Origin: Crocinitomicaceae bacterium
GTDB lineage: Bacteria; Bacteroidota; Bacteroidia; Flavobacteriales_D; Crocinitomicaceae
Reading direction: 5' to 3'
NCBI GenBank assembly: GCA_044347515.1
Contig: JBIKUO010000003.1
Location: forward strand, 40,558 to 104,557
Length of the DNA stretch: 64,000 bases
Every line of letters begins with the position of its first letter. Position 1 is the first letter of the stretch. The position numbers and the translations under genes were made by a program. The notes under the pieces were generated by a model. That model ran no database searches. It worked only from the letters and a program-made list of their open reading frames with translations, and was not told the origin of the DNA. Shown here in pieces: positions 47,609 to 64,000 of the stretch.

Positions 47609-48658
47609 TTACGGAGCGTATTCCTTTTTCCTTCGTCTAATAATGCATTTTAACTTGAGTGGCACGAGTCGATATGCTCTCCATAAATACGGACGGAATA
47701 ACAGTGCGAGTATTCGGTAAAAGGTCCAGCTTAAACGATCCCAAAGATTAAGTGTTATTGCGGTTGATGGGGTAGTATATCCAAGCTTTTTACTTGTTTC
47801 GCTCGTTTGTTTTAGAATGACCGCTTGATGTTTTTCAGACAAGGGTTTGGCAGTTTGTTGTTTTGAGCGAGGAGATGTATCTAATATTCCTCGGTGAAAA
47901 TCGCTAATTTTTTCAATGTATTGAGGAGACAGTAAATGCTTGCGATGTGCTATTAATGCGCTAAATCCTATTTGATAATTCAATTGTGAAGATTCAAATG
48001 AAACGCCCCAAATGGTATTCAAGGTCCTCAGTGCGGATTCAGGGTTGGAAATGAACGTTTCAAAGGGTAAGATTTGAATGCTTGGAAAACCTAAGGCCTC
48101 ATCGTAGGTAAGTTTCCAAACATTACTCAAATAATAGGGGTGACTAAAAAAATCAATGCCTCTTCGACTTTTCGCTTCAATATTCGCTAAAACGTTTCGT
48201 GTTAAAATCAAAAATGAAGCATTGGGAAATAATCGCGTAATTTCTTCTTTATGAAATACATATTTCATCTGCTTGTCAAGAATAACCTTGATGGAATCCT
48301 TGTTTTTGATGTCGCAATCGTAGAAATTTAAATAAGTTAACTTAATTAATCGATCATAGTTCAAGACAGATGCATGGTCCAACAGGCATTGAGCAAAACG
48401 CTCTTTGTGCTCAAAATACAAGGCGGCATTCTTTTCAAAAAGGCTAAAGAAGTCATCCACATAGGCCTTAATTTGACTTTCATTCCAGTCGCTTATTTTT
48501 CCGTACTTACCTGAAAAATATAAGGCAAAGGGTTCTTCGGACGCAACAATCAATGAAGAATTCATATTCAACATGGTCGCAAGCAAAGAGGAACCCGTAC
48601 GTTCCGTACAAAGTATAAAATGAATGGGTATGGAATCTAATTCGTCGCTACGCCACAT
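47609..48658 (-). CDS. Sulfotransferase family protein (copy 3)
   Basis: PAPS 5-prime-phosphosulfate-binding loop CTERTGSSLL near the N-terminus. The ORF opens on TTG at 48700. ATG 48658 overlaps the upstream stop by 11 nt. Confidence 0.7.
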   Translation of the reverse strand: MWRSDELDSIPIHFILCTERTGSSLLATMLNMNSSLIVASEEPFALYFSGKYGKISDWNESQIKAYVDDFFSLFEKNAALYFEHKERFAQCLLDHASVLNYDRLIKLTYLNFYDCDIKNKDSIKVILDKQMKYVFHKEEITRLFPNASFLILTRNVLANIEAKSRRGIDFFSHPYYLSNVWKLTYDEALGFPSIQILPFETFISNPESALRTLNTIWGVSFESSQLNYQIGFSALIAHRKHLLSPQYIEKISDFHRGILDTSPRSKQQTAKPLSEKHQAVILKQTSETSKKLGYTTPSTAITLNLWDRLSWTFYRILALLFRPYLWRAYRLVPLKLKCIIRRRKKEYAP

Positions 48659-49700
48659 GTTTCTTACGTTTTTTGTCGATTCGGAGCACCCAACGCTCAA
48701 AATAAATAACTTTTAGACGAATAGGTAAGCGATTAAACAGCGCATCTTTTGCTCGATCCAGGCTTATTTTTAGAGCATAGGGTGTTGCTAAAGCAAGAAT
48801 CCAACATCGTTTGGCAATAGGAATTGTCAATGTGGTGTGATAGCCGTAGGTGTTTCCCTGTTTCCCAGCAATGACTTCGCACACCTCAATTTCCTGAGTT
48901 GTCAATCCCGTTTTCCATGACTCAACTGCTGCGGTATGTATAGGTTTGGATAAATCACCAAAGCGTTTTTTCATGCGCTCGGCTTGTTCGTATTGGGTTT
49001 TTACTTCGCGTTGAAATAAGGCTTGATATGGCGCCAAGGCCTCTTGCGTTTCTATTTCTACTGGTATTTCAAGAAACTCACACACCTTGATTAACCAGTG
49101 GTCAGGGGCTTGAACCAAGTCTTCATAACGTACAATTAGTACGTGATTTGGATGCTGTTTTTGAAAGGTCGCTATGCGTTGTTCAAATTGAATCCAGCGC
49201 AATGAATTATAGTAGGCGCTGGTGGATTTTAAATGGATACTATTTTTCCTAGAATTCACATTGGCCCGGTAGTCGCGCATCATCCATATGTACTTTGAGT
49301 TTGAGTTGATGGCAGTCAGGGCGTCGAGGTAGTAGGAGTGAAGCGGATTCTTGTTAATGAAATGAACTGCATCTTTTGTGGGGGCAAGCGTATCCACAAA
49401 TGAACGGTATGTGTGAATAATTAGTTCTTCATACGACGTGATTTCCTTATTCGATACAAAGGAGTCCTTGTCAAACGTAAACCCAACATAGGGTTGCAGG
49501 ATTCCAAAGGCCTTATGGAAACGCGCGGCCAATGCTAACTCTTCGCTATTGAATTCGGTTTTATTTTTCCATGCATGATAAAAAAATGGAATAAAATAGT
49601 TCTCCGGTCCTGCCCACACCTCAGGCTGTGCATTCAACATGCTTTGCAATAAGGTGGTACCTGAACGACCAATGCCAATGATGTGGTGATGCTTATTCAA
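48648..49700 (-). CDS. Sulfotransferase family protein (copy 2)
   Basis: IIGIGRSGTTLLQSMLN PSB loop and a MMRDYRANVNS 3-prime-PB-like region. TTG start overlaps the upstream stop by 8 nt. Confidence 0.75.
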   Translation of the reverse strand: MNKHHHIIGIGRSGTTLLQSMLNAQPEVWAGPENYFIPFFYHAWKNKTEFNSEELALAARFHKAFGILQPYVGFTFDKDSFVSNKEITSYEELIIHTYRSFVDTLAPTKDAVHFINKNPLHSYYLDALTAINSNSKYIWMMRDYRANVNSRKNSIHLKSTSAYYNSLRWIQFEQRIATFQKQHPNHVLIVRYEDLVQAPDHWLIKVCEFLEIPVEIETQEALAPYQALFQREVKTQYEQAERMKKRFGDLSKPIHTAAVESWKTGLTTQEIEVCEVIAGKQGNTYGYHTTLTIPIAKRCWILALATPYALKISLDRAKDALFNRLPIRLKVIYFERWVLRIDKKRKKHVA

Positions 49701-50667
49701 GTCGTTTCAATTTTAAGGACAAGGGAAGGTGAAAAAGCAATTTTTCTTTGAGGTCATACCAAAATGCTATGATTTGCAAGGTTAAAGGAACGTATACTGT
49801 AGCATCCGTTTCGAATTCATAGCCAAAATTAGGCATTTCATTTCGGCAGATCGATTCTATGATTTCCTGTTGTCGAAGATCCAGTACTTCACGCCATTGT
49901 TCAACGGCTCGGGAGCTTATTGGTTGATTTAAATCAACATATTTTTTATTTAAGCGGGCGTTGGATTCATTGTAGCCACTGGGGTTCCTAGTTGCGACTT
50001 CATCAATCTTCATTGGGCTCAATCCGAGGAACGCACAGAGTTCATTTATAGTCTGCTGCGGATGCATTACAAACTGTTCATACCTCAATAAATAGATTTG
50101 CGAGGAATAATCACGCATGAGGTGGTGAAAACGTCTATTATATCGTTTCCATCGGATAGCATTCAAGATCCAATGGTTATTCCTGCCATGAACCGAATTA
50201 ACGCTTTGGATGCGTGAAGCTACATTCGCTCGCGGATCACGTACCAGAAAAATGGCTTTAGTTTGTGGGTATTCCTTAAGAAAATGATGTGCATGTAAGG
50301 TGTTTACAGGATTCTTATCGATAATCCATTTCGGACTTTGGGCGTTCTTCTCGGACGCAGAATCGCTTGTAAATAAGGTCGAAAGTTGGTTCAAATAGCT
50401 GAAATAGTCTAATTTGCTTGGAATCTTTGTTATTTCTTCAGTTTGAATATGCCATGGATGACCTGGATGCCTTCGCTTCATGGCATTTATAAAGCGTACA
50501 ACTAAATGATTTCTTTTTGAATTGAACCGATTATTTCGAAGTTCCTTATAAAAAAATGAGAACAAGGGAATTTCAGGATTATCCAAGCAATCGGGATGGC
50601 TTCCGAGTGTTTTTGAAAGTATGGTCGACCCGGATCGTCCGATTCCTATAATAAATAATCGATTCAA
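49693..50667 (-). CDS. Sulfotransferase family protein (copy 1)
   Basis: IIGIGRSGSTILSKTL PSB loop and a LVRDPRANVAS 3-prime-PB-like region. TTG start 15 nt after the upstream stop. Confidence 0.75.
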   Translation of the reverse strand: MNRLFIIGIGRSGSTILSKTLGSHPDCLDNPEIPLFSFFYKELRNNRFNSKRNHLVVRFINAMKRRHPGHPWHIQTEEITKIPSKLDYFSYLNQLSTLFTSDSASEKNAQSPKWIIDKNPVNTLHAHHFLKEYPQTKAIFLVRDPRANVASRIQSVNSVHGRNNHWILNAIRWKRYNRRFHHLMRDYSSQIYLLRYEQFVMHPQQTINELCAFLGLSPMKIDEVATRNPSGYNESNARLNKKYVDLNQPISSRAVEQWREVLDLRQQEIIESICRNEMPNFGYEFETDATVYVPLTLQIIAFWYDLKEKLLFHLPLSLKLKRLE

Positions 50668-50682
50668 GTTATTTAATGTAAA

Positions 50683-52983
50683 CTATTGATTATTAATTTT
50701 TTGAATGTAATATTCTATGCGTGCTATTTCTTCATTCGCCGCTTGATTATTCATCTTACGTAAGGAGCTAATCGCCCGATTGAATGCCCGTATGGCCTTT
50801 TCTTTTTCACCCAGATTCACATATGAATTTCCAATTTGCACAAAGTCTTTAGCCTTACCCTTTCCTGTTTTGATTTGATGTTTGTGGATTGCTATAATTG
50901 CTTCATAACGAAGTGCATTTATGAGGTAGGTATCCGTGAGTTCCTCCGCCTTGGATTCGGGAAATTTCTTTTCGATAACTGCTTTTGTCGCAATAATTTC
51001 ATCGATTAATGAATCTGAAATAGTTACAAAACGGTCGGGCGCAACAAAGTGACCCACCGCATTTTTACGGAAATCATCCACGATGTTGTAACTCGCTTTT
51101 TTTCCTGTATATAATTCCATTAATCGCTGATTAACTTGCTTGGCGTATGAAGGATTTAATTCGGCTAAGGTCTTGTTCCATGTCGCCTGTCCCGCAGCAT
51201 AAGCGCTAAGTTGAGCAATCGAAGTTGGATTTAATCCATCGGCTAAAAACAATTTTCCCCGTTCTTCGAATTGACTAAGTAAGCCTAAAACGCTTAAACT
51301 TGAAAGGGAATCAAACGTGTAAATTGCTGGATTTTTCAGTGATTTATCCGTTAAGAACCCTTCGTTTCGTTTCCAAACAATGTAGGTCTTTACCTGTGAA
51401 ACTAAGCGGTTTTCCCATGCTTCTTGATAATCGGGTTGTTTCATGGTGAGTTCGTTAAGTAAGGCTAAAGACGCCCGCTCATCACATAAGAAAGAAGATT
51501 CAATGGAGGCCAAGTTGCTTTTAATTTTGTAATAATCTGGAAAGACGTGGAGCGCGTTCTCATAAGCTTGTTTGGCCCTGATTACTTGGCTGTAGATTGC
51601 TTCTTGGTTTTCTGACTGCACATCGTTCCAAGATTGATTGATTTGATATTGTAATTCTTGTCCAAGCAAAGCATGAACTTTAGCGGATTTTGTGGTTGAG
51701 CTATCGGATTCATAAAGACTCAAGCGATTGGTCCATGCGCCGTTTCGAATGAAGACCATGCTTAAACTGTAAAGGCTGAATGCGATAAAAATTAGGGGGG
51801 CAATATTTTTTTTGATTGTGGAGAATTGGTTCAACAGAAAGACGATGGTAATGCATAGTCCCAGGCTTGCAGTAAATGCTAAGCGTTCACCAACAATTCC
51901 AACCATTGGAAAGATTAAGTTACATGCTCCAACAATAGCCAGAAAGAAAAATACCAGTCCAAAACTCATTTCGGTGTGAGTCTTTTTTACAACGGACCAT
52001 AAAATAAAACCTACGATGATTAATAGTGTTGTAGCGCTAATGAGCGTTGCAAGGGTGAATGCTGGGGAAACGGTAAATGACCCCAAGCCATAATAGCATT
52101 GTAAATCCAAGGGTAGGATGCTCTGTTTAACATACCAAATCACGGAGTCAAAGAATAGGGGGATGCGCTGAATGAAGTTGTATTCAAACGCTGGATTTTC
52201 AACGATGGAAAATTCTCGAATTTTATCAGTTTCAATTAATCCCTTTTTTAATAATCCAAAAACGATTCGAGCTCCGAGTAGCGATGCGGATATATAAGCT
52301 ACAGATTTCCATGAAAAGGATCGAAAGAATACAAGGGCAATGGGAATTATCACCAACATGGGCATGGCCGTTTTTTTACTCAACAAAGCCAAAAGCAAAT
52401 ACAGCAACGTAAAGAGTAATGATTTCCATTTTCGTGAATCGACAAACCGTAGTGCGGAACGCAAGGCTAGTAAAGAGAACAACATGCTGAGCAATTCATC
52501 TCGATTTTTTAAACTATTAACGACCTCACTGTGAATGGGTAAGCTAAGAAAAAGCAAGGTAATTACGAACGCTATACCGTGCTTTGAAGGACCAAACAGG
52601 TTATTCAGGGTGCTGAATAAAATAATGCCAAGCAGCGCATACAAGAGCAGTTGAACAAAGTGGGAAATGTGAACCCATGCATCGGAGCTTCCAAATAGAC
52701 TGTTTTCAATGGCAAAGGTGGTCAGAACGACTGGACGGTATTCGTAGTTTTGTTCCTCATTGGCAGCGTAGGAAGTGCTAAAAATTGCGGGTATTCCTCT
52801 TATTCCTTTACTTACCAGTGGATGTTCTTGTCGATCTGTACATGTAACTAATTCATCATCTAAGGCAAAGGTGTTTTTAATCGTGTTACCATAAAACAAG
52901 AATACCCATAGAATGAGTACGAGATAAACAAAACGTTGGGATAACGTAAAAACTCTACCAAAGAAAGGGAATTCAAACTGCAC
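50683..52983 (-). CDS. Polytopic GT-C-like membrane protein with C-terminal TPR region (TMTC/PMT_2-like)
   Basis: 766 aa, with ~10 hydrophobic helices in the first ~420 aa. The first extracytoplasmic loop carries FALDDELV, the acidic DD/DE motif of GT-C enzymes. The C-terminal ~300 aa is helical and TPR-like. GTG start. Confidence 0.6.
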   Translation of the reverse strand: MQFEFPFFGRVFTLSQRFVYLVLILWVFLFYGNTIKNTFALDDELVTCTDRQEHPLVSKGIRGIPAIFSTSYAANEEQNYEYRPVVLTTFAIENSLFGSSDAWVHISHFVQLLLYALLGIILFSTLNNLFGPSKHGIAFVITLLFLSLPIHSEVVNSLKNRDELLSMLFSLLALRSALRFVDSRKWKSLLFTLLYLLLALLSKKTAMPMLVIIPIALVFFRSFSWKSVAYISASLLGARIVFGLLKKGLIETDKIREFSIVENPAFEYNFIQRIPLFFDSVIWYVKQSILPLDLQCYYGLGSFTVSPAFTLATLISATTLLIIVGFILWSVVKKTHTEMSFGLVFFFLAIVGACNLIFPMVGIVGERLAFTASLGLCITIVFLLNQFSTIKKNIAPLIFIAFSLYSLSMVFIRNGAWTNRLSLYESDSSTTKSAKVHALLGQELQYQINQSWNDVQSENQEAIYSQVIRAKQAYENALHVFPDYYKIKSNLASIESSFLCDERASLALLNELTMKQPDYQEAWENRLVSQVKTYIVWKRNEGFLTDKSLKNPAIYTFDSLSSLSVLGLLSQFEERGKLFLADGLNPTSIAQLSAYAAGQATWNKTLAELNPSYAKQVNQRLMELYTGKKASYNIVDDFRKNAVGHFVAPDRFVTISDSLIDEIIATKAVIEKKFPESKAEELTDTYLINALRYEAIIAIHKHQIKTGKGKAKDFVQIGNSYVNLGEKEKAIRAFNRAISSLRKMNNQAANEEIARIEYYIQKINNQ

Positions 52984-57735: not shown

Positions 57736-58232
57736 GAACATTCTATAACGACACCTTGACAATAGGAGGTACTCCGTTCCTTCCCCGCCGTGTTGTTTTG
57801 CCGAAAGTTCAGTTCAGACAACTTACTTTTTTTTATTAAAAGCCAGCCAATAGTCAGGCGGGTTTATTCGTATCAATTCCACAGTGTATGTTTAATAGTA
57901 ATCGCCTATAGGATGTTGGAAGCGCGCCTCCGGATATACACCGAAGCATAGCTGGTTTTAGTCAATAAATATTAGCGAACTAATTGTTGGAGTTAGAAAT
58001 TAGTGCCTTAGGTTAAAAAACGTATCAGTTTATGGCATCAAAACTAACTAGCCGTAATGAATAAATACAGTTACAACGCGATGAATATCAATACCTATTT
58101 GATTCTTTTGGACTTGTTTAAAAAAGAACTATTGGTATTTTTATAAAAGTTAATCTGTTAATTTTACATTATTATTGTAAAAAAGCGCAATTATTTTCAA
58201 ACTCAAAAAAAGTGGCGACTACGCAAAATGAC

Positions 58233-58418
58233 ATGAAAAAAACCTTAATATTTCTTGGAGTAATTTTATTTACTTCCATAATTTTATTCAGCTGTGGTTC
58301 GAAAGTTACCGTTTGTGATTGCCTCAAGGATGACGGATCCCACAAAAAAGAATGCGATGAATTGGGTAATAGCATGTCTTCAGATGAAATAAATAACGCA
58401 ATTATTCAATGTAAATAA
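58233..58418 (+). CDS. Small Cys-rich lipoprotein
   Basis: MKKTLIFLGVILFTSIILFSCGS is a signal peptide plus lipobox. The ORF opens on GTG at 58212. Confidence 0.5.
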   Translation: MKKTLIFLGVILFTSIILFSCGSKVTVCDCLKDDGSHKKECDELGNSMSSDEINNAIIQCK

Positions 58419-58487: not shown

Positions 58488-59582
58488 ATGAAATTAACTA
58501 CAGCGATCGTTTTATGTTTTTTATACGTTTTAACGGCAAAAGCACAAGAAATTGATAAAAAAGAAAATGAAATTCATGATAAATTAAAAATCGCAACAAG
58601 AAATTTAGAACCATTCTCATTCATGGAAAATGGGGAAAGAAAGGGGTTCTCAATTGAATTGTGGAGCGAAATCTGTAAAAACCTTAAGATGGACTACGAA
58701 TGGGTTGAATTGAATTCGGCTAATGAAATCATTCATTCCATCGAAGTTGGAAAGTCAGATGTCGGAGTTGGTGCGATCAGCGTAACATTTGATAGAGAAC
58801 TTATCGTGGATTTTTCTCATCCATTTTATGAATCTGGGTTACAAATTTTAGTTAACAAAAGTGATGATTCTTCCGGGTCATTAATCTCTATTCTGAGATC
58901 ATTTATTTCTTGGAATGTTATCATTCCAGTTATTATTGTTTTAATAGTCATTTTTATTATGTCAAATTTGATTTGGTTTTTTGAACGAAAAATAAATCCC
59001 AGTCAATGGCCGGAAAATTACAAGCCAGGAATTATAGAATCAGTTTGGTTCACCTTAACAACCATGCTGGTTGGGGGGGCAGATAACAAAGGACCATTGG
59101 GAATAGGGGGAAGAATTGTTACAATAATTTGGATGATTGCAAGTACTATTTTAATATCTTTTGTTACCGCCACGTTGACAACCACAATGACAGTAAACAA
59201 GTTAAGTAGTAAAATTGATGGTCCTGAAGATTTACCAGGACTAAAAGTAGCTACGATTAAAGGTAGTAATACGTGTGATTGGTTAAAGCAAAAGAATATT
59301 AGTATTGTTCAATTAGAAGATATAACGGATTGTATTAATCAATTACAAAAAAACAAAGTTGATGCAGTCGTTTATGATGCGCCGATTTTACAATATGAAC
59401 TTTCCAAATACAATAGCGATAAAATTAACTTAGTTGGACCAATCTTTAATCGTCAATATTATGCGTTCCCTATCAAAGAAAATGACCATTTGGTTCAGAA
59501 AATAAATCAAATACTTCTCAAGTTACACGAAAACGGATTTATCATAGATTTAAGGAGAAAATATTTCCATGATAGTTATTAA
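58488..59582 (+). CDS. Prokaryotic ionotropic glutamate receptor-like channel (GluR0-type: split periplasmic binding domain with inserted M1-P-M2 pore)
   Basis: Signal peptide. S1 lobe (SBP_bac_3-like, GAISVTFDRELIVDFSHPFY). TM helix WNVIIPVIIVLIVIFIMSNLIWFF. Re-entrant segment SVWFTLTTMLVGGADNKGP. TM helix GRIVTIIWMIASTILISFVTATLTTTMTV. S2 lobe (VDAVVYDAPILQYE). Confidence 0.8.
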   Translation: MKLTTAIVLCFLYVLTAKAQEIDKKENEIHDKLKIATRNLEPFSFMENGERKGFSIELWSEICKNLKMDYEWVELNSANEIIHSIEVGKSDVGVGAISVTFDRELIVDFSHPFYESGLQILVNKSDDSSGSLISILRSFISWNVIIPVIIVLIVIFIMSNLIWFFERKINPSQWPENYKPGIIESVWFTLTTMLVGGADNKGPLGIGGRIVTIIWMIASTILISFVTATLTTTMTVNKLSSKIDGPEDLPGLKVATIKGSNTCDWLKQKNISIVQLEDITDCINQLQKNKVDAVVYDAPILQYELSKYNSDKINLVGPIFNRQYYAFPIKENDHLVQKINQILLKLHENGFIIDLRRKYFHDSY

Positions 59583-59846
59583 CCTTTAGATGGTTATTCA
59601 ATCATTAGTTTTTTTTGTTTGAAGAATGAGAATTCAGAAAAATTACTTATTTTTAGTCCATATTTTTTTATTCAAAGTCATAATTATTTTAAAAAATAAT
59701 CTAAAATGAACATACACAGGCTATTATACTCTAGGGGACCATAGGTGTTTTGATTTAAAACAACAAATTTAAAAAGAGACAACCTTTAAATCCGAGATTT
59801 CCGAAAATCGTTAAGAGTAGGTAATAAATATATAATTTTAATAAAA

Positions 59847-60479
59847 ATGGCAGATCAAAATACAGCATATCAATATTTCCATCCAGGATGTATGGAAACT
59901 TTACCTTTTATTGGTAAACCTAAAGTAACAGATTCTATGTTCGATGACTTTAGAAATAAATTACTAAATAGCTTAGTGGAAAATACGGCACCAGGGAAAC
60001 TTGATGTTCATACTTCAGATTTAATAATGAAGTCAGTTTTAATTACTGGGCCAAGAATTTTAAAGAGAGGAGGAATTAAATTATTGCATAAAACTGGTAA
60101 AGACAATATTATTCGATATAATGCTATTAATGCATGTATTTTATTGTTTTCAGAAAATCAAATGCTTTATTTTAATTGCTGTTATGATTTGTTGACAGAG
60201 AAAGCAACAATGGTTAATACTGAAGAGTTTTTCTACAAAGATATAGTTTCTACATCTACTGATACTATTGAGACTACGTATGAAGACGAGGAGGGTAAAA
60301 TTCAGAAATTAGAAGTTGCCGATTGTTTTCGTGTAAGAACATCTGGTGGTACTGCAATAGAAGTGGTTCTAACGTCTCCAAAATTACTTGAAATTTGGGG
60401 TGGTGGTGTCATTCCTACGGATTACATCGAAGATGCAATCTCAAAAATCCGAAAAGTTCTTCGTGAGAAAAAAGGATAA
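59847..60479 (+). CDS. Hypothetical soluble protein, 210 aa, no recognisable motif
   Basis: Clean ATG ORF in an AT-rich block, followed by a strong terminator. No TM segments or known signatures seen. Confidence 0.55.
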   Translation: MADQNTAYQYFHPGCMETLPFIGKPKVTDSMFDDFRNKLLNSLVENTAPGKLDVHTSDLIMKSVLITGPRILKRGGIKLLHKTGKDNIIRYNAINACILLFSENQMLYFNCCYDLLTEKATMVNTEEFFYKDIVSTSTDTIETTYEDEEGKIQKLEVADCFRVRTSGGTAIEVVLTSPKLLEIWGGGVIPTDYIEDAISKIRKVLREKKG

Positions 60480-60488
60480 TATAGTTAA

Positions 60489-60523
60489 CTGGTGATAAGG
60501 AATCTTATCACCAGTTTTTTTTT
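60489..60523 (+). terminator. Rho-independent terminator
   Basis: An 11-bp perfect stem: CTGGTGATAAG (60489..60499) pairs with CTTATCACCAG (60504..60514) across the loop GAAT. A 9-nt T-run follows. Confidence 0.9.
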
Positions 60524-60528
60524 ATTTT

Positions 60529-60744
60529 ATGAAATACCTATTCGTCTGGGCTATCATTTATCTATATCAAAAGCCTAGAAATTATTTTAATAAAGATACA
60601 AGTTACTGTAGATTTGATCCTACCTGTTCTGAATATGGAAAACAAGCCTATTTGAAATACGGTGTGATAAAAGGATCAATCAAAACATATAAGAGAATAA
60701 AAAGATGCAATGGCTCCGCAATTGGAGGGATTGACAGACCTTAA
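60529..60744 (+). CDS. YidD-like protein (membrane protein insertion efficiency factor family, divergent)
   Basis: YCRFDPTCSEYGKQAYLKYGVIKGSIKTYKRIKRCNGSAIGGIDRP aligns with the E. coli YidD core [47 protein letters not shown]. Confidence 0.8.
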   Translation: MKYLFVWAIIYLYQKPRNYFNKDTSYCRFDPTCSEYGKQAYLKYGVIKGSIKTYKRIKRCNGSAIGGIDRP

Positions 60745-60760
60745 TTAAATTAAATATATT

Positions 60761-61900
60761 ATGGCTAAAATTTGTAAAAAATGTAATGCTTCAATCAATA
60801 GTAAATCAATGGAGTGCCCTTATTGCGGAAGCACTAGCTTTGAAGTAGAAAGTGTTGAGCCGGTAAAAGAGATACAGCCAAGTCAGCCAAGTCAGCCAAG
60901 TCAGCCAAGTCAACCAAGTCAAAACAATGATGGCGTTTACTCTGATAAATTAGAACAATTAATTTCTTTAGCCTTACTAGACGGTGAATTAACAGAAAAA
61001 GAAAAGCAGGTGCTTTTTAAAAAAGCGGAAGCTGAAGGAATTGATTTGGATGAATTCGAAATGGTATTAGATGCAAAATTAAAGCAACTCCAAATTTCAA
61101 CTTCACAAACTACACCAAATTACGGTCATGACCATGCTAGTTTAACTCCGCCACCTCCGCCTCTAAATACCCCCACTCCGGTTATGCCAAGCCGAGAGGC
61201 ATATAGTCAATTAGAATATCTAATTGACATGGGTCTTAAAGACGGATTAATTAATGATTACGAAAGACAAACTATCGTTGAAAAAGGACTTGCATTGGGA
61301 ATCTCGAGAAATGAAATTGAAATGATTTTAACTAATAAAATTGATGAAAAATCGAAATTATTAGCTCAAACAGCGGCTCCTAAATCTGATAAATTTGGTG
61401 ATATTAAAAAATGCCCTTCATGTGGTGCAATAGCACAATCATTTCAAACAAAATGTTCTGATTGTAGCCATGAATTTAGTAATATAGGTTCAAATGTTAC
61501 AATAGGTAAACTATTTGATATGCTTAATGCATGTGAAAACGAGAGGAAAGATGAAGATATGTCAATAGGTAAGGCTTTTGGCAGTATGTTTGCTAATAGG
61601 TATGGAGTAGGTGGTGGTGATAGAATTTTAGAAAAAAAGAAATCTATCATCTCTGGTTTTCCAATACCGAACACGAAAGACGATATTCTAGAATTTTTAT
61701 CACTTGCGATTCCTAATGCTAAAGAGAAGGGGACTATGTTTACAAAACAGCAACCGGAAAATAAATCTCACAATGATTTGGCACCAACATGGAAATCCAA
61801 ATGTGAGCAAATAATAATGAAAGCCAAATTTTCAATGAAAGAGGATAAGAAAATATTAGAGGAAATTATGGCTTACGCAAATGAACTTGGAATCAAGTAA
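60761..61900 (+). CDS. Double zinc-ribbon protein with two TerB-like helical modules and an unknown C-terminal domain
   Basis: Zinc ribbons CKKC...CPYC (N-terminus) and CPSC...CSDC (residues ~219-240). A (PSQ)5 linker. Two modules: LALLDGELTEKEKQVLFKKAEAEGIDLDEFEMVL and MGLKDGLINDYERQTIVEKGLALGISRNEIEMIL (TerB/DjlA-N-like DG-x6-E pattern). A PPPPPLNTPTP tract. Confidence 0.6.
   Translation: MAKICKKCNASINSKSMECPYCGSTSFEVESVEPVKEIQPSQPSQPSQPSQPSQNNDGVYSDKLEQLISLALLDGELTEKEKQVLFKKAEAEGIDLDEFEMVLDAKLKQLQISTSQTTPNYGHDHASLTPPPPPLNTPTPVMPSREAYSQLEYLIDMGLKDGLINDYERQTIVEKGLALGISRNEIEMILTNKIDEKSKLLAQTAAPKSDKFGDIKKCPSCGAIAQSFQTKCSDCSHEFSNIGSNVTIGKLFDMLNACENERKDEDMSIGKAFGSMFANRYGVGGGDRILEKKKSIISGFPIPNTKDDILEFLSLAIPNAKEKGTMFTKQQPENKSHNDLAPTWKSKCEQIIMKAKFSMKEDKKILEEIMAYANELGIK
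60875..60919 (+). repeat. Five tandem copies of a 9-bp unit (CAGCCAAGT) encoding (PSQ)5
   Basis: Four perfect copies plus one copy with a G-to-A change, read directly in the sequence. In frame. Confidence 0.95.
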
Positions 61901-61922
61901 TTTAATTTAATAGAAAAAAATC

Positions 61923-63266
61923 ATGGGACTTTTTGGAAAAAAAGAAGAAGGTGGGTTAATGGATGTTATCCGCTGTGACGAACAAGAATATCTCGTATGG
62001 AAATGGCGTCCATCTGGAGCAGCTAATTCAACGAATAAAGAAAATGCCATAAGATATGGTAGTAGTCTGAGAGTTAAAGATGGTGAATTAGCGGTATTTG
62101 TATACCAACAAAAAGATGGTTCTTTACAAGATTTCATAGTTGGACCATACGATCAAACGATAAAAACTGCCAATTTCCCAGTTTTAACAGGTATTGTTGG
62201 AATGGCTTTTGGAGGTGCTTCACCTTTTCAAGCTGAAATTTATTTTATTAATCTTTCGGGGAATATTCAAATTAAATTTGGTGTTCCTTATTTTGATGTA
62301 TACGATCCGAGATTCTTGGATTTTGGTGTTCCAATGGCTGCAAGAGGTACAATAACCTTTAATGTTACTGATTATAAAGGCTTTATTAAACTCAATCGGC
62401 TCATTAACTTTGAGTTAGAGGATTTTAACAAGCAAATAAAAGATGCAGTTTCTAAATATGTTAAAGGCGTTATTACCAATATCCCGTCAGATAACGGGAT
62501 TCCGGTACTACAAATGGAGAAAAAATTACTGGAAATCAATGATTTAATTGCGGCATATTTAAAACCAAGATTAGAGAATGACTTTGGAGTTAACTTGAAG
62601 GGGTTTGATTTAGCAACAATTGAGGTTGATAAAGAAAGTCAGGGTTATGCTGAATTAAGAAAAGTTACGGCGGATCAGGCAGCAAAAACTACGGTTGCTC
62701 AAACTGACGTTAACATTAAAAATATGCAGGATATGCAAAGTATTAATTCTCAAAATATGGAAGAAACACTGCGTATTCAAAGGGAAGAAGCTCAACGGGC
62801 ACAAAAACTTCAAACAGAAACTAACTTCATTGGAACACATGCGCTTAATCAACAGTCGGATGTACTAAAAACGGCGGCTCAGAATTTAGGAGAGATGGGG
62901 TCCATGAATACAGGTGGCGGCGGCGGCATGAATCCTGCCGGAATGATGACAGGCATGATGTTAGGCGGTGCGATGGGTAATCAAATGGCAGGAATGATGA
63001 ATAATATGGGGCAAAACATGCAACAGCAACAAAATACACCACCACCACCACCATCTATTTCATATAATATTTCGGTAAATGGTCAGAATTCAGGTCCTTT
63101 CAACTGGCAACAATTACAACAATTAGTTCAAAACGGTCAATTAACCCCCAATACACATGTTTGGAAACAAGGCATGGCCGGTTGGGAAGTTGCAGGTAAT
63201 GTTCCGGAACTAGGTAACTTATTTGCCTCTACACCTCCTCCGCCTCCACCTCCACCAATGTTATAA
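61923..63266 (+). CDS. SPFH/Band 7 protein of the Band_7_1 (YdjI-like, 'virion core protein-like') type fused to a Met/Gly/Asn/Gln-rich linker, polyproline tracts and a C-terminal GYF_2 domain
   Basis: N-terminus MGLFGKKEEGGLMDVIRCDEQEYLVWKWRP...LRVKDGELAVFVYQ is the Band_7_1 signature start. C-terminus YNISVNGQNSGPFNWQQLQQLVQNGQLTPNTHVWKQGMAGWEVAGNVPEL is the GYF_2 (DUF4339) pattern. Ends in PPPPPPPPPML. Confidence 0.75.
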   Translation: MGLFGKKEEGGLMDVIRCDEQEYLVWKWRPSGAANSTNKENAIRYGSSLRVKDGELAVFVYQQKDGSLQDFIVGPYDQTIKTANFPVLTGIVGMAFGGASPFQAEIYFINLSGNIQIKFGVPYFDVYDPRFLDFGVPMAARGTITFNVTDYKGFIKLNRLINFELEDFNKQIKDAVSKYVKGVITNIPSDNGIPVLQMEKKLLEINDLIAAYLKPRLENDFGVNLKGFDLATIEVDKESQGYAELRKVTADQAAKTTVAQTDVNIKNMQDMQSINSQNMEETLRIQREEAQRAQKLQTETNFIGTHALNQQSDVLKTAAQNLGEMGSMNTGGGGGMNPAGMMTGMMLGGAMGNQMAGMMNNMGQNMQQQQNTPPPPPSISYNISVNGQNSGPFNWQQLQQLVQNGQLTPNTHVWKQGMAGWEVAGNVPELGNLFASTPPPPPPPPML

Positions 63267-63277
63267 TCCGTATATGT

Positions 63278-63619
63278 ATGAATGATGATAGCTTTTTCTC
63301 GATCGATCGTTTAGTTGAATTTGGTATGGGTATGTCTATTGCTCAACAAATGGTTAATACTATGAATAATGCCATTTCAAACATGCAAGTTCCGGGATCT
63401 ACACTTACAATACATGCACACTTGCAATTCTATTATGTGGTGATAGAAAATAAGCAATCTGGACCGTTTACGGAACAAGAATTAACTCGTTTAATAATTG
63501 AGAAGAAAATCACGAAGGAAACATATATTTGGAAACCAGGTATGTCAAATTGGGAATTAGCAGAAAATGTACCTGAGATCTTAAAACTAGTAGCACTAGC
63601 TCCACCTCCTATCATATAA
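63278..63619 (+). CDS. Small GYF_2 (DUF4339) domain protein
   Basis: FYYVVIENKQSGPFTEQELTRLIIEKKITKETYIWKPGMSNWELAENVPEI matches the GYF_2 pattern. Ends in APPPII. Confidence 0.7.
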   Translation: MNDDSFFSIDRLVEFGMGMSIAQQMVNTMNNAISNMQVPGSTLTIHAHLQFYYVVIENKQSGPFTEQELTRLIIEKKITKETYIWKPGMSNWELAENVPEILKLVALAPPPII

Positions 63620-63630
63620 TTAAACTATTC

Positions 63631-63975
63631 ATGAAGATTAATTTTATACCAATAGTTATTGCAACTTCTTTAGCAGCACTGATCTCTTATGGTTTTTACA
63701 GCTTACATTCTGGTGAAAATAAAGCGCTTATTGGATTGTCCAGTTTTTTCTTTGTTTTAACAATATTGCTAATGACCATTGCAGTTAGCTTCGATTCAAC
63801 AAGAACCACAACTAATATTAGAGTTTTGTCCTCAGTATTTCTTTTGATTTCATTAACAAGTAATCTCATTTTTTCCTTAATTGATTTTTCAATTCCAGCC
63901 TACATAGTTACAAATGGTATTCTATTTTTTGTATTTATACTTCTTGTTTATTCAATCAACAAAGCAGATCAATAA
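63631..63975 (+). CDS. Small integral membrane protein (about 4 TM helices), unknown family
   Basis: 114 aa and almost entirely hydrophobic, in four blocks. Starts 11 nt after the upstream stop. Confidence 0.6.
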   Translation: MKINFIPIVIATSLAALISYGFYSLHSGENKALIGLSSFFFVLTILLMTIAVSFDSTRTTTNIRVLSSVFLLISLTSNLIFSLIDFSIPAYIVTNGILFFVFILLVYSINKADQ

Positions 63976-64000
63976 CCACCGTAGATGTAACCTTCAGGTT

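Follow-up and report, generated by a model that had tools for sequence, protein, structure and literature searches.

A Band_7_1 SPFH and GYF gene set with an upstream leader RNA motif in Bacteroidota, a candidate PspA-less membrane scaffold

Genes and RNA elements of the unit

The DNA analysed here, called the window throughout, is a stretch of 64,000 nucleotides (nt) from a Crocinitomicaceae bacterium (Bacteroidota; GenBank assembly GCA_044347515.1, contig JBIKUO010000003.1, positions 40,558 to 104,557 of the forward strand). Near its end, five plus-strand open reading frames (ORFs) encode a YidD-family protein (YidD71), a Zn-ribbon protein with TerB-like helical hairpins (Z379, or Z), a Band_7_1 SPFH protein fused to a GYF_2 domain (SPFH447, or SPFH-GYF), a stand-alone GYF_2 protein (GYF113) and a small protein with four transmembrane (TM) segments (T114, or T; the 4-TM protein). 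A first reading of the locus, made from the letters alone and called below the sequence-only reading, had taken these ORFs as a five-gene operon bounded upstream by a strong terminator. The coordinates of the five ORFs and the gaps of 16, 22, 11 and 11 nt between them were reproduced from the window ORF list. The boundary was revised: the set probably comprises six genes, including the upstream gene h210 (H), which is a recurrent partner of the others and is itself preceded by a leader RNA motif (Table 1).

Table 1. Features of the six-gene unit, in window coordinates
Feature	Position	Strand	Description
DUF805b-like leader RNA motif	59791..59823	+	RF02914, below gathering threshold; 24 nt 5' of h210 start codon
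h210 (H family)	59847..60479	+	210 aa; no Pfam family; no TM segment in window version
Terminator-like hairpin	60487..60525	+	13-bp stem and nine T, between h210 and yidD
YidD71 (YidD family)	60529..60744	+	71 aa; PF01809, TIGR00278
Z379	60761..61900	+	379 aa; Zn ribbons, TerB-like hairpins, all-alpha C-terminal domain; no TM segment
Z379 N-terminal Zn ribbon	60773-60829	+	CxxC...CxxC
Z379 (QPS)x5 repeat	60875-60919	+	
Z379 TerB-like helical hairpin 1	60938-61102	+	followed by proline-rich linker
Z379 TerB-like hairpin 2	61193-61372	+	
Z379 second Zn ribbon	61412-61465	+	CxxC...CxxC
Z379 mosaic segment	61465..61787	+	323 nt without nucleotide match in near-identical contigs
Z379 all-alpha C-terminal domain	61481-61897	+	
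SPFH447	61923..63266	+	447 aa; Band_7_1 SPFH and GYF_2; no N-terminal TM segment
SPFH447 Band_7_1 domain	62037-62636	+	residues 39-238
SPFH447 Gly/Met-rich low-complexity segment	62889-63035	+	preceded by long predicted helix (low-confidence model)
SPFH447 PPPPP	63039-63053	+	
SPFH447 GYF_2	63069-63212	+	residues 383-430
SPFH447 C-terminal P8	63234-63257	+	
GYF113	63278..63619	+	113 aa; stand-alone GYF_2
GYF113 GYF_2	63431-63577	+	residues 52-100; Met-rich amphipathic helix before, C-terminal PPP after
T114	63631..63975	+	114 aa; four hydrophobic segments; last gene of unit

Domain assignments were judged against the Pfam gathering cut-offs (YidD PF01809, 27 bits; Band_7_1 PF13421, 24 bits; GYF_2 PF14237, 25.8 bits; TerB PF05099, 24.4 bits; DUF533, 29.6 bits) and a TIGR00278 cut-off of 40 bits. 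The Band_7_1 domain of SPFH447 scored 84.4 bits, and the GYF_2 domains scored 67.9 bits in SPFH447 and 63.1 bits in GYF113, which upholds the SPFH call and both GYF_2 calls of the sequence-only reading. Its YidD call was likewise borne out by both curated models (PF01809, 65 bits; TIGR00278, 54.3 bits), and the YidD71 translation shows YCRFDPTCSEYGKQA, the conserved cysteine motif CRF.P.CS.Y. T114 matched no Pfam family. It has 30 relatives, nearly all of 113-115 aa, and its four hydrophobic segments agree with the earlier description of a small polytopic membrane protein. Among the six unit proteins of the window only T114 has hydrophobic segments, and it is the sole integral membrane component there.

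SPFH447 contains no hydrophobic segment and hence no membrane anchor of its own. Its Gly/Met-rich segment (14 Gly and 13 Met in 49 residues) is nearly invariant among homologues. Both proline tracts, PPPPP before the GYF domain and P7-9 at the C-terminus, are kept in 80/81 homologues, and a C-terminal PP follows the GYF domain of GYF113 in 74/81. The sequence-only reading had suggested that the module acts through proline-tract/GYF interactions. Tracts flanking both GYF domains in essentially every homologue support this idea; the contacts themselves are predicted. In a sequence search of the PDB, the SPFH447 GYF domain matched that of GltJ (PDB 7z3c, E 1.3e-4). GYF113 clusters with the SPFH C-terminus and is its paralogue, a stand-alone copy of the SPFH tail.

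The Z protein was more difficult to classify. Z379 itself fell below threshold for TerB (19.1 bits), DUF533 (20.8 bits) and every zinc-ribbon model, and two CxxC...CxxC pairs are evident in its sequence. At the level of the family, profile matches at E <= 1e-3 were counted in 36 relatives: TerB was matched by 17 of them (best E 1.3e-9), DUF533 by 11 and Zn_ribbon_3 by 20. The N-terminal region of DjlA also gave a match, at E 2e-6. Thus the earlier TerB and zinc-ribbon calls stand for the family and fail the Pfam cut-off in Z379 itself. An AlphaFold2 model of Z379 (predicted local distance difference test score, pLDDT, 74.5) shows the N-terminal ribbon, confident hairpins at residues 62-114 and 145-204 and an all-alpha C-terminal domain at residues 248-376, the parts being joined by disordered proline-rich linkers. 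When this model was compared with the PDB by Foldseek, TerB was not among the matches and none reached E < 0.001, the hits being local ones to L40e-type Zn ribbons; no solved relative was found in the PDB by sequence or profile search. The hairpin region carries invariant acidic residues (D74, E76, E79, E81, D95, D97, E98 and E100). The core of the family is the C-terminal ~238 aa; of 1.84 billion cluster representatives, 541 are related to its helical domain. Some of these relatives bear a C-terminal TM helix extended by a coiled coil, and one Z relative (P0373) is fused to two GYF_2 domains.

The hairpin between h210 and yidD consists of a perfect 13-bp stem (60487-60516) followed by nine T (-18.6 kcal/mol; shuffle z -6.6), and none of 200 shuffles folded as stably. 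The strong terminator claimed before the five genes is thus present as a structure. Its role as an operon boundary was not sustained: the T run stops 2-3 nt short of the yidD ATG, which leaves no space for a separate yidD promoter, and therefore the 5' end of the unit is probably not marked by the hairpin, which probably lies within the operon. Hairpins of unrelated sequence occupy the same place after H in two related loci (L071, ~2838-2870; L017, 4891-4921), whichever gene comes next, YidD or Z. Given this conserved position, the stem-loop may help to set how much H is made relative to the downstream products. As a prediction from these stem-loops, the element is most likely an intra-operon attenuator or stabiliser.

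The leader motif combines a small hairpin, its loop ...CCGAAAA, with a GAGUAGG tail. It was compared with the Rfam families DUF805b (RF02914, gathering threshold 35.6 bits) and DUF805 (RF03081, 51.1 bits), both of clan CL00115, and matched RF02914 at 29.6 bits (E 1.2e-6 to 2.6e-5), below gathering. The core pattern has a single match in the 64-kb window, where 0.21 would be expected. In the four loci tested with Rfam, a DUF805/DUF805b motif precedes the first module gene; matches above gathering were obtained before H in L142 (5406-5446; 40.0 bits) and before YidD in L017 (3867-3933; DUF805, 58.3 bits), and the motif of L094 (5939-5971) scored 33 bits. A pattern search of 1.33 Mb of related loci gave 33 matches, about eight times expectation and almost all on the module strand. 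In 22 distinct copies an ATG lies 13-31 nt downstream, mostly 19-31 nt, and the motif is followed by H, YidD, Z, lipoprotein-like neighbours or, among the inserted genes described below, those for bPH_1 and small TM proteins. The stem covaries: all 22 copies can pair a 3-4 bp stem with AT, CG, GT, TA or GC as closing pair, the register having been set per sequence, which biases toward pairing. From this arrangement we infer that the unit begins with the leader and H. More widely, the DUF805-type motif may mark a regulon of envelope-associated Bacteroidota genes.

Conservation, alternative operon types and genomic setting

Conservation was followed in two scans. The first was anchored on SPFH, with one genome per species; 557 genomes had a close SPFH-GYF relative, and the counts below refer to the best 80 of these 557. 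The SPFH proteins of these species-level genomes are 70-88% identical and come from Flavobacteriales, Chitinophagales, Cytophagales, Bacteroidales (including Bacteroides and Prevotella) and Ignavibacteria/Kapaibacteria bins. A GYF gene lies 3' of SPFH in 77 of the 80 loci, a 4-TM gene 3' in 73 and a Z-family gene 5' in 71. Z, SPFH-GYF, GYF and 4-TM genes occur together and in that order in 65/80, the exceptions being mostly contig ends. Outside this four-gene core nothing is conserved, and the flanks vary from locus to locus. Because the order of the four genes is conserved with unrelated flanks, Z/SPFH-GYF/GYF/T was considered a self-contained cassette, and the synteny check proposed with the sequence-only reading shows its genes to be linked and conserved across Bacteroidota. 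One extra gene lies between SPFH and GYF in 18/80 loci; some of these inserts encode small TM proteins, others bPH_1 (a bacterial PH domain, 158 bits) or YidD.

Z varies far more than SPFH. Its C-terminal half is 25-91% identical across the same loci where SPFH is 70-88% identical, and 2-4 Z paralogues are present in 11/80 loci. Sister contigs of the window, including L001, were recovered by exact-protein look-up. In contigs 98-99% identical to the window on both flanks, the mosaic segment of Table 1 is unmatched at the nucleotide level: the N-terminal 217 aa of Z are identical save for the number of QPS repeats (5 in the window, 4 in L001), after which identity falls to ~49%. The second Zn ribbon and the helical domain of Z have thus been exchanged for another subtype between near-identical strains.

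The second scan was anchored on H, for which sequence and profile searches of Pfam, PHROGs, PADLOC and the PDB gave no match. Metagenomes were queried with an alignment of H, and 80 loci were kept, many of them only 1-4 kb long (truncated contigs). An SPFH (Band_7_1) gene is adjacent in 43, a Zn-ribbon and helical protein in 43 and YidD in 31. In the SPFH-anchored set YidD was found in 4/80 loci, at varying positions (L007, L017, L041 and L071), and H accompanies it in L017 (order YidD-H-Z-SPFH) and L071 (H-YidD-Z-SPFH). YidD is an optional, lineage-specific component. The housekeeping rnpA-yidD-yidC context was not seen at the window locus, where the neighbours of yidD are h210 and Z379.

A related operon of Bacteroides finegoldii was found through a distant Band_7_1 match; its record already annotates the genes. 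They encode, in order, a helix-turn-helix (HTH) regulator, an H-like protein, YidD, SPFH, a multi-TM protein and a Zn-ribbon-TPR protein. The product of the first structural gene is 35% identical to h210 over 137 aa (E 1e-13) and carries an N-terminal TM helix. The YidD protein (60 bits) has an N-terminal TM extension. Over its full length the SPFH protein shares 30% identity with SPFH447, and it has the same succession of parts: Band_7_1 (154.8 bits), a Gly-rich segment, PPPPP, GYF_2 and PPPPP. The B. finegoldii record L089 (NZ_OY725907.1, 108 kb), although labelled 'plasmid 5', has tmRNA, obgE, adenylate kinase, dinB and pgeF and looks like part of a chromosome.

Three gene orders were thus recognized: H-Y-Z-S-G-T in the window, [HTH]-H-Y-S-t-z in the B. 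finegoldii type, and S-t-z-H. In the last type a SHOCT-like tail replaces GYF on the SPFH protein, and H carries a pair of N-terminal TM helices. In one S-t-z-H locus (L099) a 579-aa ORF at 499-2238, DUF262/GmrSD-like by eye only, lies directly 5' of the operon; this is a single case. Common to the operon types are H, YidD, a Band_7_1 protein with a low-complexity tail, and the architectures of a Zn-ribbon and helical protein and of a small polytopic protein. Homology of T114 to the multi-TM partner t of the other types was rejected (hhalign probability 3.9%), as was homology of Z to the Zn-ribbon-TPR partner z, with which it has the Zn ribbon alone in common.

In the plasmid collection only Band_7_1 proteins of ~25% identity were found, and in the phage collections module relatives were limited to one GenBank record and two IMG/VR contigs; therefore the module is not typically plasmid- or phage-borne. 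On one phage-like contig (L088 4303-9275; IMG/VR UViG_3300045988_150542), a TM protein with two Zn ribbons and the Z domain is encoded directly 5' of SPFH-GYF. Also encoded nearby are a Tad3-like anti-Thoeris protein (PF25185, 104 bits), a MazG-domain protein and a DUF2800/PD-(D/E)XK-like protein. The module proteins had no meaningful match in PHROGs.

At the window locus the unit lies in a low-GC island of ~7 kb (GC 0.29-0.39 from ~57.4 kb to the window end), both flanks being at ~0.40-0.44; on the sister contig L001, on which the downstream side was read, the low GC runs on for ~400 nt past the window end, to about 64400. The low-GC block described earlier was thereby confirmed. No tRNA and no integrase were found in the island, and its flanking direct repeats are weak and AT-rich; mobile-element hallmarks, looked for around it, were dropped as an idea. 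The sequence-only reading had allowed that the set might continue past position 64000. This was rejected, since on L001 a 335-nt gap follows the T114 gene and the CHU_C/PKD and GH92 genes beyond it are convergent, so the set ends at 63975. It had also described the neighbours as accessory genes; these proved to be glycan-type chromosomal genes, and no defence island was found. Three tandem sulfotransferase genes (47609-52983, minus strand) adjoin a PMT_2/TPR glycosyltransferase-like membrane protein, and beyond them, on the plus strand, lie an aminoglycoside-N-acetyltransferase-like gene and GNAT, SDR and DUF3472 genes; together they are probably a glycan or surface-modification cluster. Inside the island, upstream of the module on the plus strand, are a small lipoprotein-like ORF (58212-58418) and a gene for a prokaryotic iGluR/GluR0-type ligand-gated K+ channel (58488-59582; SBP_bac_3 and Lig_chan). 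Both accompany the module in the close relatives L091 and L094.

No PspA, NfeD or Ter gene was found in the operon, ~13 kb upstream of it or 6 kb downstream, in keeping with the earlier statement that no PspA/IM30, NfeD or Ter genes are in view, and none is recurrent in 160 related loci.

A candidate sub-membrane scaffold and its alternatives

From the domain content, gene linkage, conservation pattern and proline/GYF features described above, physical interactions and a physiological role can be proposed for the six-gene unit. The reading that we favour, and to which we give about an even chance, is that the unit encodes a PspA-less, YdjGHI-like sub-membrane SPFH scaffold, a complex on the cytoplasmic face of the inner membrane. 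A membrane location is suggested by the four TM segments of T114, by the TM helices on H and YidD in other loci and by the TM and PH inserts. The linkage of the genes into one system is suggested by the four-gene core in 65/80 loci, the three gene orders, the phage Z-SPFH dyad and the Z-GYF fusion. The leader motif, found before the first module gene and also before several of the inserted genes, speaks for common regulation.

In outline, the unit would be read as leader RNA, H, hairpin, YidD, Z, SPFH-GYF, GYF and 4-TM. The Band_7_1 SPFH protein would form the conserved oligomeric scaffold, anchorless like YdjI of Bacillus subtilis, and the oligomer would be tethered to the membrane by T114 and probably also by its own Gly/Met-rich segment. 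Both GYF proteins, SPFH447 and GYF113, would use their GYF domains to bind the flanking polyproline tracts and those in the Z linker, and these contacts would cross-link the parts into a lattice. Z would be a variable adaptor or sensor that joins the scaffold to a client or signal, its acidic TerB-like hairpin possibly binding a cation. The recurrent YidD paralogue may point to the client process, which would be membrane-protein insertion or quality control, or the repair of membrane damage. YidD assists YidC-dependent insertion, and HflK/C cross-links with FtsH and YidC. An insertion or quality-control role, as suggested by YidD, would parallel the contacts between HflK/C, FtsH and YidC.

Several points weigh against the scaffold proposal. 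With no PspA/IM30 partner nearby, the only experimentally known output of a Band_7_1 protein is missing. The AlphaFold2 model of SPFH447 was unusable (pLDDT 44), having been built on a shallow alignment in which all homologues are at least 85% identical. T114 has no proline tract to meet the GYF proteins. The 4-TM and Zn-ribbon partners of the three operon types have no detectable homology, and the claim that these are the same system therefore rests on H, YidD, SPFH-GYF and architecture. Z diversifies fast and its alleles are swapped, which is seen more typically in conflict systems than in a housekeeping scaffold. Finally, the members of the module appear to be known from sequence only.

The behaviour of Z bears on the surveillance or defence role raised by the sequence-only reading, which stays conjectural. 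Here the module would be an anti-phage membrane system of the abortive-infection type, in which Z senses a phage cue and the SPFH/GYF lattice with the TM protein perturbs the membrane or excludes phage DNA or proteins. We consider this unlikely. Z is indeed the fast-evolving part of the module, is duplicated in some loci and has its C-terminal domain swapped between strains; the module lies inside a low-GC island; and TerB-like domains are known from Ter stress clusters. Some loci are flanked by tyrosine integrases, AAA_14/DUF4143 or GIY-YIG genes, L099 by its DUF262-like gene (assigned by eye), and the Z-SPFH dyad of the phage contig lies near a Tad3-like anti-Thoeris gene. Set against this, the module encodes no effector domain, be it nuclease, NADase, protease, kinase or another, and the conservation of SPFH is far above that usual for defence genes. 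The components of the three operon types and of the phage dyad had no match in PADLOC-DB 2.0 beyond chance level, the chance-level matches being the TerB-like hairpin to PDC-S48 (18.5 bits, local) and the B. finegoldii YidD to 'E2' (14.6 bits, E 0.0058). As the sequence-only reading had supposed, no already characterised system was matched, the PADLOC characterised and candidate systems being included in the comparison. The flanks of the window unit are glycan-modification genes and those elsewhere are mostly unrelated and unremarkable, the window locus has no tRNA, integrase or flanking repeats, and the module is very rare on phages and plasmids.

The K+ channel gene upstream of the unit raises a second alternative, a stomatin-like regulator of ion channels or osmotic balance, in which SPFH would gate or cluster K+ channels and the acidic Z hairpins would sense a cation. 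This we regard with strong doubt. Eukaryotic stomatins regulate ion channels. The iGluR/GluR0-type gene lies two genes upstream of the module, is kept with it in L094 and recurs in L021 and L033; CASTOR/POLLUX-RCK genes are adjacent or near in 8/80 loci; and the invariant acidic residues of the Z hairpin resemble those of metal-binding TerB. Channel genes are nevertheless missing from ~85% of loci and restricted to Flavobacteriales-type contigs, and therefore their presence may be lineage synteny. Other genes intervene between them and the module, they are on the opposite strand in some loci, and none is present in the B. finegoldii or S-t-z-H versions.

That the five genes are mere neighbours, for instance a housekeeping yidD beside unrelated small genes with no shared function, might be argued from the strong terminator-like hairpin within the unit and from the rarity of YidD in SPFH-anchored loci, yet it is hardly credible, being contradicted by the synteny data: the four-gene order with variable flanks, the recurrence of H, YidD, SPFH and Zn-ribbon genes in three orders, the Z-GYF fusion and the shared leader motif.

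A wider proposal can be made only tentatively, and we hold it to be rather improbable: the operon types together would be undescribed, rearranged SPFH systems of Bacteroidota. Their task would be the insertion, quality control or repair of membrane proteins independently of PspA, or else a membrane-based defence against phages whose specificity is set by a swappable Z. If so, a conserved Band_7_1-GYF scaffold would be combined with a diversifying adaptor, H and a dedicated YidD, all under an orphan DUF805-type leader, with versions in gut Bacteroides and Prevotella.

SPFH proteins are universal membrane organisers, and the Band_7_1 branch has one studied example, YdjI, which acts through PspA. 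The same logic of an anchorless SPFH protein, a Zn-ribbon partner and a membrane partner is seen here without PspA, in a phylum relevant to the gut and the environment. Three unannotated protein families are added (H, the helical domain of Z, and T114), a YidD-like protein gains a second, operon-dedicated role, and the genes downstream of the orphan DUF805/DUF805b RNA motif now include a new and coherent group. A constant scaffold with a variable adaptor also gives an experimental handle on how bacterial SPFH scaffolds choose their clients.

Relation to known systems

Literature on COG4260, PF13421, YidD with SPFH, and SPFH with anti-phage functions yielded no description of the present system. 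The SPFH and GYF architecture and the DUF805-type RNA motifs are already known, separately. In the literature found there was no description of the multi-gene system, the H, Z and T families, the link to YidD or the leader.

The closest parallel is the pspA-ydjGHI operon of Firmicutes. In B. subtilis, YdjI is a soluble Band_7_1 protein that depends on the membrane proteins YdjG, with two Zn ribbons, and YdjH to reach the membrane, and through it PspA is tied to the membrane (PMC8581546; PMC11237479). The module of Bacteroidota is alike in having an anchorless Band_7_1 protein, a two-Zn-ribbon partner and a separate integral membrane partner in one operon. It differs in that no PspA/IM30 gene is present in the operon or among its neighbours, and the SPFH tail consists of GYF_2 and polyproline instead of a Zn ribbon. 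Compared by description, YdjG has an NTF2-like domain and a TM segment (PMC11237479), whereas Z379 has TerB-like hairpins, is all-alpha beyond them and has no TM segment; YdjH has a TPM domain, whereas T114 is a 114-aa 4-TM protein without one, no TPM match being found in the six proteins. Orthology to YdjG and YdjH was rejected on this difference in domain content, set apart by description. The stand-alone GYF protein, the H family, YidD and the DUF805b-type leader, all present here, have no place in pspA-ydjGHI.

The expected binding mode of the GYF domains follows GltJ of Myxococcus xanthus, a bacterial GYF domain with micromolar affinity for a proline-rich sequence (PMC11135422). Of bacterial GYF proteins, ~44% also have a Zn ribbon, and modules of the type Zn ribbon-linker-GYF are widespread switches (PMC11135422). 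GltJ (PMC11135422; PDB 7z3c) and the present module have in common a GYF_2 domain, a Zn ribbon, flexible proline-rich linkers and a membrane module, and a proline-rich ligand is predicted here too. The Zn ribbon and GYF domains are on separate proteins here, save in the rare fusion P0373, the GYF domain is fused to SPFH, and the gliding-motility context of GltJ (Agl-Glt, MglA/B, AglZ) is lacking.

The flotillin/NfeD, HflK/C-FtsH and QmcA-YbbJ operons likewise place an SPFH scaffold gene beside a small membrane partner, and the role expected of them, the organisation of membrane proteins or of their quality control, is the one proposed here. They carry Band_7 (PF01145) and not Band_7_1 (PF13421). 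The present SPFH protein has no N-terminal TM or hairpin anchor, and neither an NfeD nor an FtsH partner was detected; in the Pfam scan no operon protein matched NfeD. TerC, TerD, TerZ and other Ter genes were not found in the operon or its scanned neighbours. Flotillin/NfeD, HflK/C and Ter identities were rejected.

In 2007 Balaji and Aravind (PMC2034487) noted the SPFH and GYF architecture, along with the proline-rich stretches on its flanks and the neighbouring TM genes. The architecture alone was listed there; Z, the stand-alone GYF protein, the 4-TM protein, H, YidD, the leader and the conservation pattern were not described. The leader, in turn, differs from the DUF805/DUF805b RNAs (RF03081, RF02914) in that the genes downstream here are not DUF805 proteins by Pfam and the window copy scores below gathering. 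It shares with them the hairpin with a GAGUAGG tail, the placement 19-31 nt before a start codon and the occurrence in Bacteroidota.

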